Positions 5,355-5,508 of a stretch of DNA of 30,664 nucleotides are shown one piece after another. The stretch's first letter is position 1. Each line of letters opens with the position of its first letter. The position numbers and the translations under genes are program-made. The notes under the pieces are model-generated. The model was not told the DNA's origin. It saw only the letters and a list, made by a program, of their open reading frames with translations, and did not search any database. Source of the stretch: a virus (Duplodnaviria; Heunggongvirae; Uroviricota; Caudoviricetes); IMG/VR virus record IMGVR_UViG_2802429251_000007, positions 1-30,664 of that record; one strand, given 5' to 3'.

Positions 5355-5430
5355 GCCGACTTAGCTCAGTAGGTAGAGCAACTGACTTGTAATCAGTAGG
5401 TCACCAGTTCGATTCCGGTGGTCGGCACCA
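5355..5430 (+). tRNA. tRNA-Thr (anticodon UGU)
   Basis: Cloverleaf by eye: acceptor GCCGACT, anticodon loop CTTGTAA, T-loop TTCGATT, 3' CCA; near-identical to host thrU from memory. Confidence 0.9.
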
Positions 5431-5433
5431 TAT

Positions 5434-5508
5434 GCGGGTATCGTATAATGGCTATTACCTCAGCCTTCCAAGCTGATGATGCGGGTTCGATTCCCGCTAC
5501 CCGCTCCA
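5434..5508 (+). tRNA. tRNA-Gly (anticodon UCC)
   Basis: Acceptor GCGGGTA, anticodon loop CTTCCAA, T-loop TTCGATT, 3' CCA; near-identical to host glyT from memory; 3 nt after tRNA-Thr. Confidence 0.9.

Follow-up and report, generated by a model that had tools for sequence, protein, structure and literature searches.

Two tRNA genes in the virus record IMGVR_UViG_2802429251_000007 (Caudoviricetes), of which one strand of 30,664 nt was analyzed (the window), are nearly identical to the Escherichia coli genes thrU and glyT and belong to a mobile module of about 700 bp (5013–5716, plus strand) which is common to other prophages. We think it rather probable that this module is a moron, a self-contained cassette of tRNA genes, which would serve codon supply from its own promoter and by read-through of late transcription. 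A moron is an autonomous extra transcription unit of a phage, in the sense of Hendrix and colleagues. By sequence alone the cassette has its own promoter and terminators, and it is placed between genes which are adjacent in close relatives.

The starting point was a sequence-only reading that had proposed two tRNA genes 3 nt apart. In the whole window ARAGORN calls exactly two tRNAs, tRNA-Thr(UGU) at 5355–5430 (anticodon tgt) and tRNA-Gly(UCC) at 5434–5508 (anticodon tcc), and the Rfam model RF00005 accepts both with 67.7 and 65.6 bits, well over its gathering score of 29. The two genes are on the plus strand, encode their CCA ends and are separated by the spacer TAT (5431–5433); on the pair and its spacing both programs and the earlier reading agree. 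Because thrU and glyT of the actual host lie outside the window, the thrU-tyrU-glyT-thrT locus of E. coli K-12 was taken as reference. The Thr gene is identical to thrU at 75 of 76 positions and the Gly gene to glyT at 73 of 75, and tyrU, which together with its spacers accounts for the 209 nt between thrU and glyT in K-12, is absent from the pair, as the sequence-only reading had stated. The sole change in Thr is A66G, which turns U7-A66 into U7·G66; this is the T7-G66 wobble in the acceptor stem that had been noticed at the outset. The two changes in Gly form a compensated pair, C6:G67 being replaced by U6:A67, and about one half of the related loci have this form. The identity elements established in the literature for ThrRS (G1-C72, C2-G71, G35, and U36) and for GlyRS (G1-C72, C2-G71, G3-C70, C35, C36, and U73) can all be read from the alignments of the window Thr and Gly.

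For comparison we scanned for fused pairs, i.e., a Thr 3′ end followed after a gap of 0–12 nt by a Gly 5′ end. Among the matches listed 132 fused pairs were compared, and variants were tallied for 130 Thr and 128 Gly copies. G66 occurs in none of the 132 other pairs among these matches, and the 154-nt pair of the window has no 100% match in 5,421 complete E. coli genomes. Judged from these sequences the G66 wobble is private to the window copy, and it probably represents a near-neutral mutation or drift of this copy. Besides the private wobble, the compensated Gly pair, the cassette's own promoter and leader, and the recognition of the pair as a single widespread fused unit go beyond the earlier reading.

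The near-identity to thrU and glyT would also be expected if the pair were simply chromosomal tRNA genes of the host or the remnant of an attachment site, the prophage then ending at some other place; tRNA genes are integration sites for many temperate phages. However, on either side of the pair there are kilobases of phage genes, both tRNAs are complete, no integrase gene is nearby, the flanks are unlike the host operon beyond 1–2 nt, and the cassette is found inside isolated and sequenced phage genomes. Moreover the junction between prophage and host, at pphA and yebW, is located about 23 kb downstream. This explanation, to which we assign practically no probability, is refuted by the mid-prophage position, the complete genes and the unrelated flanks, and the pair is prophage-borne as first proposed. 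The further suggestion that the tRNAs mark an old integration or recombination event held only in part. With complete genes and no fragment of an attachment site, integration is not supported, whereas recombination is borne out by the junctions at about 5013–5118 and at 5716.

Promoter, leader and terminators of the cassette

The promoter and the terminators were identified by sequence scans (consensus hexamers and terminator-like hairpins), and for the promoter we compared 35 distinct upstream variants anchored at the leader start. Following an A+T-rich tract (about 5140–5263) there is a predicted sigma-70 promoter (5264–5291, plus strand, scan 9/12), consisting of the −35 hexamer TTGCGA (5264–5269), a 16-nt spacer and the −10 hexamer TATCAT (5286–5291). 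All 35 upstream variants keep TTGnnn together with TATTAT, TATCAT, or TAATAT, and the spacing is 16 nt in 33 of them, although the surroundings have diverged. In every variant the −10 hexamer ends 6–8 nt before the leader, and the predicted transcription start is the first base of the leader hairpin or a position next to the hairpin. The 16-bp spacer and the moderately G+C-rich stretch in front of the start recall promoters of stable RNAs. The A+T-rich tract also contains an upstream element, TTTACA-N4-TTGACG (5238–5253, plus strand), possibly an UP-like element or a protein-binding site. The motif ATTTACA...TTGAC(A/G) is present at constant distance in otherwise diverged upstream sequences, and no conserved −10 hexamer goes with it. 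We considered the TTGACG at 5248 as an alternative −35 hexamer and rejected it, since no conserved −10 follows it in the diverged variants and the conserved promoter is found 16 nt downstream.

The 5′ leader (5299–5351, plus strand) is predicted to form a hairpin with an outer helix P1 (5299–5304 pairing with 5346–5351), a G·A/A·G internal loop (5305–5306 opposite 5344–5345), an inner helix P2 (5307–5311 pairing with 5339–5343) and a variable interior. In the related loci P1 consists of GGUUCY paired with RGAACC and P2 of GGG(G) paired with CCY, the tandem G·A/A·G loop between them is symmetric, and the interior comprises 21–40 nt. This hairpin is present in 56 of 62 loci of the pair type, and RNAalifold recovers the structure. 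In the covariation analysis 94.5% of the cells are paired and five of the ten pairs vary on both sides, which is matched by none of 500 shuffles; for instance pair 6 is C:G in 12, U:A in 10 and U:G in 5 sequences. Slid registers all score far worse. As G·U pairs are frequent in the hairpin, an RNA encoded on the plus strand is plausible. The leader hairpin has no match to an Rfam family, and the architecture of promoter and leader was not found in the literature searched. Our best guess is that the hairpin is a 5′-terminal structure which stabilizes the precursor or presents it to RNase P. The 63 nt in front of Thr were also examined as degenerate tRNA sequence, left over from the Ile2 and Arg genes of a four-tRNA array. 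This idea was discarded, as ARAGORN and Rfam find nothing there, the sequence is unlike the tRNA ends of the four-tRNA arrays described below, and the fold is a two-helix hairpin and not a cloverleaf.

Scanning viral contigs with the leader pattern gave 126 matches, 87 of which are followed by a tRNA-Thr. Two further matches are genuine copies without tRNAs, and nearly all of the remainder look like chance, being located on unrelated contigs which are often G+C-rich. These two are duplicates of promoter and leader (L016, 2434–2494, and L094, 7151–7209), each located some 600 nt before the complete cassette of its locus, and in both duplicates the leader is joined straight to the region that otherwise follows the Gly gene.

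A strong intrinsic terminator (5084–5119, plus strand; hairpin at 5084–5109) precedes the promoter; it has a 10-bp stem with six G:C pairs followed by TTGTTTTTGT and is conserved in a Rac-like prophage (L001), in the isolated phage vB_EcoS-683R6 (L002) and in a sister prophage (L004). Downstream of the tRNAs the terminator scan finds a terminator-like hairpin with a T-run (5603–5634, plus strand; hairpin at 5603–5624), where the transcript of the cassette probably ends, and this hairpin lies inside a 208-nt stretch after the Gly gene which is conserved in 36 loci. Between tRNA-Gly and the first holin gene there is a whole run of terminator-like hairpins (5603–5943), located at 5603, 5779, 5819, and 5928, and the region 3300–6400 contains 12 such sites where 3.7 are expected. 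The stretch 4990–5125 was compared with 3370–3500 as a possible second copy of the PR′-isrK unit, and no meaningful similarity was found.

A unit that has its own promoter and is bounded by terminators shows at the same time the classic anatomy of a moron that is expressed from the prophage. The pair might accordingly act in lysogenic conversion, its constitutive expression in the lysogen aiding the host in the translation of A+T-rich acquired genes such as toxin genes. In line with this the pair is situated directly beside stx2f in phage phi467 (PMC7366253) and lies within the LT-IIb prophage segment. In most loci, however, the neighbors of the pair are ordinary lysis genes and not toxin genes, and we regard lysogenic conversion as very unlikely. 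It would nevertheless be compatible with the cassette explanation given above, because the same tRNAs would serve both.

Distribution, origin and mobility of the fused pair

In records comprising one genome per species, ten stretches carry the fused pair. The carriers belong to five enterobacterial species, namely Citrobacter braakii, Enterobacter hormaechei, Shigella flexneri (three copies), E. coli (three copies), and Escherichia ruysiae. The tenth stretch (L014), a 423-bp contig of Corallococcus exercitus (NZ_RAVW01000911.1) with a coverage of 0.67, is almost certainly contamination. The fused pair is furthermore present in at least 120 viral contigs, and in the 5,421 complete E. coli genomes the 154-nt pair is found at 6,578 places, an excess of about 1,157 over one per genome; a copy with 99.4% identity occurs in 129 of these genomes.

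The spacer is TAT in 127 of the 132 fused pairs among the matches listed, and because it is near-universal we assume one origin of the fused pair. Its T corresponds to the base after thrU and its AT to the two bases before glyT in K-12, which fits a single ancestral deletion of 206 nt that would have removed tyrU and the spacers and left thrU-TAT-glyT. The three matching spacer bases are weak evidence if taken alone, as such a match has a chance of 1 in 64. In the related loci 72 of 130 Thr copies are identical to thrU of K-12 and 60 of 128 Gly copies to glyT. A structural reading of the variation in the acceptor and T arms of the Gly copies reveals two independent compensated pairs, 6:67 and 48:64. 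In the Thr copies the common variants are in the D-loop, and broken stems are seen only in rare single copies. The compensated pairs in Gly and the restriction of the Thr variants to the loop thus indicate selection on the structure.

These patterns bear on the possibility that the pair is a neutral passenger, i.e., host DNA that was picked up once and hitchhikes by modular recombination, with decay now beginning in the window prophage. Such a passenger could well be missing from sister prophages, as is observed, and the private G66 (in 0 of the 132 other pairs among the matches listed and 0 of the 5,421 E. coli genomes), the IS1 element inserted in the late operon of the window prophage and the few copies elsewhere with broken stems would all fit incipient decay. 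Against this, the compensated Gly stems and the loop-restricted Thr variants point to selection, and the promoter hexamers and the pairing of the leader hairpin are kept although their surroundings have diverged beyond recognition. In addition hundreds of loci, which belong to several species and several prophage backbones, have kept the pair, and in the window copy itself U7·G66 still pairs and both callers score the Thr gene highly. We therefore consider a neutral passenger unlikely.

The pair occurs in two architectures. In about half of the loci it stands alone, and in the other half it comes last in an array of four tRNAs, the first of which is called Met(CAU) and the second Arg(UCU) or Lys(UUU), followed by Thr(UGU) and Gly(UCC). 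The first tRNA of the array is presumably ileX-like (Ile2, reading AUA). There are also copies derived from thrU in which the anticodon is switched, namely to UCU in SerU-LTIIb (L141, 1122–1197, called Arg), to UUU in two viral contigs (called Lys, one of them L083, 3480–3555) and to UAU in a degenerate copy (L166). They look like tRNA bodies that were re-purposed by mutation of the anticodon. The tRNA-Thr of JLK-2012 (L140, 2495–2570), which ARAGORN does not call, is a hybrid with a 5′ part of the HK446/SfI type and a 3′ part of the thrU type, and its sequence suggests recombination between an Asn-Thr and a Thr-Gly cassette.

The boundaries of the cassette were derived from a BLAST comparison of the window with the fetched loci. 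The region 5013–5716 is 92–95% identical in the Rac-like prophages L001 and L137 and in the isolated phage vB_EcoS-683R6. In these three the cassette comes directly after the antiterminator gene Q, and in the window it follows a module of isrK, IS1 and an antirepressor gene. L137 is the record NZ_CP026085.1, labeled E. coli DH5alpha (a label that may merit checking, as 4.83 Mb is more than expected of a K-12 derivative), and its Q gene is of the DUF1133 type. The sister prophage L004 is 97–99% identical to the window from the nin region through Q and isrK to the antirepressor gene and about 99% identical in the structural genes, but its match stops at 5118, and it has no tRNAs and a different lysis cassette. 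In another locus (L097) a four-tRNA array takes the place of the cassette at the same junction of antirepressor gene and terminator. From this presence, absence and replacement we conclude that the tRNAs travel on a module which recombines around 5013–5118 and 5716.

Codon usage and the proposed role of the tRNAs

In the explanation we favor, the sigma-70 promoter would transcribe a short precursor which contains the leader hairpin, tRNA-Thr, tRNA-Gly and the terminator in this order, and RNase P together with 3′ trimming would release two mature tRNAs, whose CCA ends are encoded. After induction the cassette would also be crossed by Q-modified RNA polymerase on its way to the lysis and structural genes. 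This is expected because the lysis genes are located downstream and no other late promoter is visible, and it follows the lambdoid paradigm; in consequence the tRNA output of the cassette should rise with late transcription. The cassette would double the gene dosage of two tRNAs which are single-copy in E. coli K-12. They would decode ACA/ACG and GGA/GGG and could thereby make it easier to translate the phage genes as well as other genes acquired by horizontal transfer.

Codon usage was compared between 28 late phage genes in the window (7,100 codons) and 42 annotated K-12 genes (14,748 codons). Per 1000 codons ACA occurs 13.5 times in the phage late genes and 5.4 times in K-12 (2.5-fold; 19.7% versus 10.2% of the Thr codons), and GGA 13.9 and 6.0 times (2.3-fold; 16.6% versus 7.8% of the Gly codons). 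Fisher tests made per total codons gave P of about 1e-8 to 1e-9. Among all 61 codons ACA and GGA come 6th and 7th when ordered by ratio, and 3rd and 4th when ordered by absolute excess. The sequence-only reading had supposed that the tRNAs support late gene translation, and in the codon comparison which it proposed the two codons are, as expected, about 2.4-fold commoner than in the K-12 genes. Of the seven codons with the strongest over-representation the four-tRNA array, its first tRNA taken as Ile2, reads five (AGG, AGA, ATA, ACA and GGA). The same codon argument has been made for the Thr(UGU) tRNA of phage SfI, with ACA making up 17.3% in the phage and 7.1% in the host (PMC3636060).

Several observations weigh against codon supply by an autonomous cassette. 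AGG, ATA, CGG, AGA and TCA are enriched as much as ACA and GGA or more, and a similar enrichment is seen for TCA, CGG, AGT and AAT, for which the cassette carries no tRNA. The probable major capsid gene (13721–14662) has a single ACA and no GGA in 312 codons, so that the most heavily translated late gene would hardly need the cassette tRNAs. The K-12 set comprises only 42 genes, and the true host of the window is not K-12. Sister prophages with structural genes of about 95–99% identity lack the cassette, which must therefore be dispensable. Finally, the promoter, the transcription start and the processing are predictions from the sequence only.

A different role is suggested by a preprint of July 2026 on the OLD protein of P2 (10.64898/2026.07.10.737580), which is reported to be a tRNase that cuts after nt 27–29 and depletes five tRNAs, namely Thr(UGU), Gly(UCC), fMet, Val(UAC) and Pro(UGG). 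The cassette might replenish tRNAs destroyed by abortive-infection tRNases, notably by OLD of P2-like prophages, and so allow the phage to finish its late program. Indeed the two tRNAs of the cassette head this target list (10.64898/2026.07.10.737580), and the Thr(UGU) gene of phage HK446 likewise sits between Q and the holin gene. However, over-expression of the E. coli Thr(UGU) gave no rescue (10.64898/2026.07.10.737580), and the protective Thr tRNA of HK446 shares only about 64% of positions with thrU. The window Thr differs from the host tRNA at position 66 only and the window Gly at 6:67 only, with D and anticodon arms like those of the host, and among the matches listed the 132 copies show no systematic divergence around positions 26–30. 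Furthermore, the four-tRNA array adds Ile2 and Arg/Lys and not fMet, Val and Pro, which fits the supply of rare codons. As the tRNAs are host-like where OLD cleaves, we judge such a counter-defense to be quite unlikely, and we see only a slim chance that the pair is kept as a unit dedicated to tRNA replenishment against OLD-family or similar tRNases rather than as a codon aid. If this were true, the acceptor-stem variants, U6:A67 in Gly and G66 here, might alter recognition by the nuclease.

Prophage setting and comparison with known systems

The pair had been described as lying between antiterminator and lysis genes, and this is confirmed, though Q is not immediately adjacent. A NinB-like gene (1933–2544) and an HNH/YbcO-like gene (2544–2834) are followed by a Q-like antiterminator gene of the DUF1133 type (2831–3385, plus strand; PHROG 753, E = 2.6e-79), whose homologues are annotated as DUF1133 or as antitermination protein Q. 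The distance of about 1.9 kb from Q to the tRNAs is filled by the isrK and C4 RNAs, IS1 and an ORF6N antirepressor gene. A probable late promoter, TTGACT-18-TATATT (3382–3411, plus strand, promoter scan 10/12), overlaps the end of Q directly before isrK. Rfam matches identify isrK (3418–3494), the a1/b1 targets of C4 (3405–3457) and the C4 antisense RNA (3522–3606). This stretch of promoter, isrK, C4 and antirepressor resembles the Gifsy-1 isrK-anrP regulatory module of Salmonella. A complete IS1 of 768 bp (3675–4442, insA/insB on the plus strand) is flanked by an 8-bp target duplication, CAAATCTC (3667–3674 and 4443–4450). It splits the antirepressor gene, which is uninterrupted in the sister prophage L004, at about the fifth codon, the remainder extending to 4991. 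As IS1 separates the lysis genes from the probable late promoter, it may be polar on late transcription.

The lysis cassette (5969–7006, plus strand; PHROGs 198, 217, and 465) consists of two holin genes (5969–6361 and 6351–6626) and an M15-type endopeptidase gene which, according to the start codons checked, begins at 6623 or 6629 and ends at 7006; the annotation of L137 has the same holin-holin-M15 order. It is followed by terminase, portal, head and contractile-tail genes. The right end of the prophage is near 29.0–29.7 kb and adjoins pphA and yebW, and this host flank (29142–30664) shows only 95.7% identity to the E. coli record used for comparison. The prophage as a whole was not found in any complete E. 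coli genome, at most 64% of the first 12 kb being present in one place. Its host should therefore be an Escherichia outside that collection and may belong to a divergent Escherichia lineage. Elsewhere in the window, the nin region contains a hok/sok type I toxin-antitoxin system, with an Rfam sok RNA (1166–1340, 108.6 bits) and an adjacent hok-type open reading frame; related prophages annotate a hok-type gene there (hokD; Hok/Gef family). A full-length match to the Rfam entry 'IS009' (28135–28333, 189 bits) falls within the tail-fiber assembly region (27792–28370) or at its end, and beyond this region a serine acetyltransferase gene (28414–28986) is found on the opposite strand at the right prophage end.

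The element itself is already known, since it is annotated in isolated phages and mentioned in print. It is annotated in phi467 (Stx2f), vB_EcoS-683R6, vB_EcoM-606R7, vB_EcoS-689R5, PhiR47_1, JLK-2012 and SerU-LTIIb as well as in hundreds of RefSeq E. coli prophages, and the tRNA genes for threonine and glycine of the Stx2f phage have been reported (PMC7366253). A search for other literature on prophage thrU/glyT or on ileZ/argN/argO gave nothing useful. With tRNAs in the interval between Q and the lysis genes being well known and the exact pair already annotated, the finding is an ordinary one. What the analysis adds is that a single fused unit derived from the host has spread across several enterobacterial species, that this unit travels as an autonomous cassette whose promoter and leader hairpin are conserved, the hairpin being absent from Rfam and from the literature searched, and that both of its anticodons are among those of the five tRNAs reported to be destroyed by P2 OLD (10.64898/2026.07.10.737580). 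The architecture of promoter and leader and the coincidence with OLD are the sole points of wider interest.

The pairs of the isolated phages are the same fused unit with the TAT spacer, 96–99% identical over 154 nt, and 92.6% in the case of JLK-2012. In phi467 the pair is located between stx2f and the S lysis gene, the order in PhiR47_1 is Met-Lys-Thr-Gly and that in JLK-2012 Asn-Thr-Gly. In some relatives the pair ends a four-tRNA array or has an altered anticodon. The window copy differs from these annotated relatives in that G66 occurs only here and that the isrK/IS1/antirepressor module, not Q, precedes it.

That tRNAs at this position are known in lambdoid phages, as the sequence-only reading had stated, is documented for SfI (PMC3636060), for Stx phages (PMC7366253, PMC7946995) and by HK446. 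Such late-region clusters include the Met(CAU)-Arg-Arg genes of Stx2a/c/d phages and the Asn(GUU)-Thr(UGU) genes of SfI, Sf6, ST64T, phage 21 and HK446. Like the window pair the lambdoid clusters lie after Q and before the holin gene, and the rationale given for them is the supply of tRNAs for codons rare in the host (PMC3636060, PMC7366253, PMC7946995). The SfI/HK446 pair shares the Thr anticodon UGU with the window, but the sequences are unrelated, the Thr tRNA of HK446 agreeing at about 64% of positions. In HK446 the Asn and Thr tRNAs come directly after a lambda-type tR′ with no visible promoter of their own, whereas in the window cassette a promoter and a leader hairpin, both conserved, precede the tRNAs.

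The thrU-tyrU-glyT-thrT-tufB operon of E. coli is the source of both window tRNAs, and their order is kept. The cassette, however, lacks tyrU, thrT and tufB, its promoter and leader are entirely different, and its two tRNA genes are 3 nt apart, compared with 209 nt in the operon. Thr(UGU) and Gly(UCC) are also present among the tRNAs for NNA codons in the T4 cluster and in the T5-like sets, the T4-like matches having about 84% identity. These tRNAs have been proposed to serve codon supply and, recently, the evasion of tRNases (10.64898/2026.07.10.737580). They are, however, diverged from those of the host and belong to the larger arrays of virulent phages, whereas the cassette described here is carried by a temperate phage and is host-identical.

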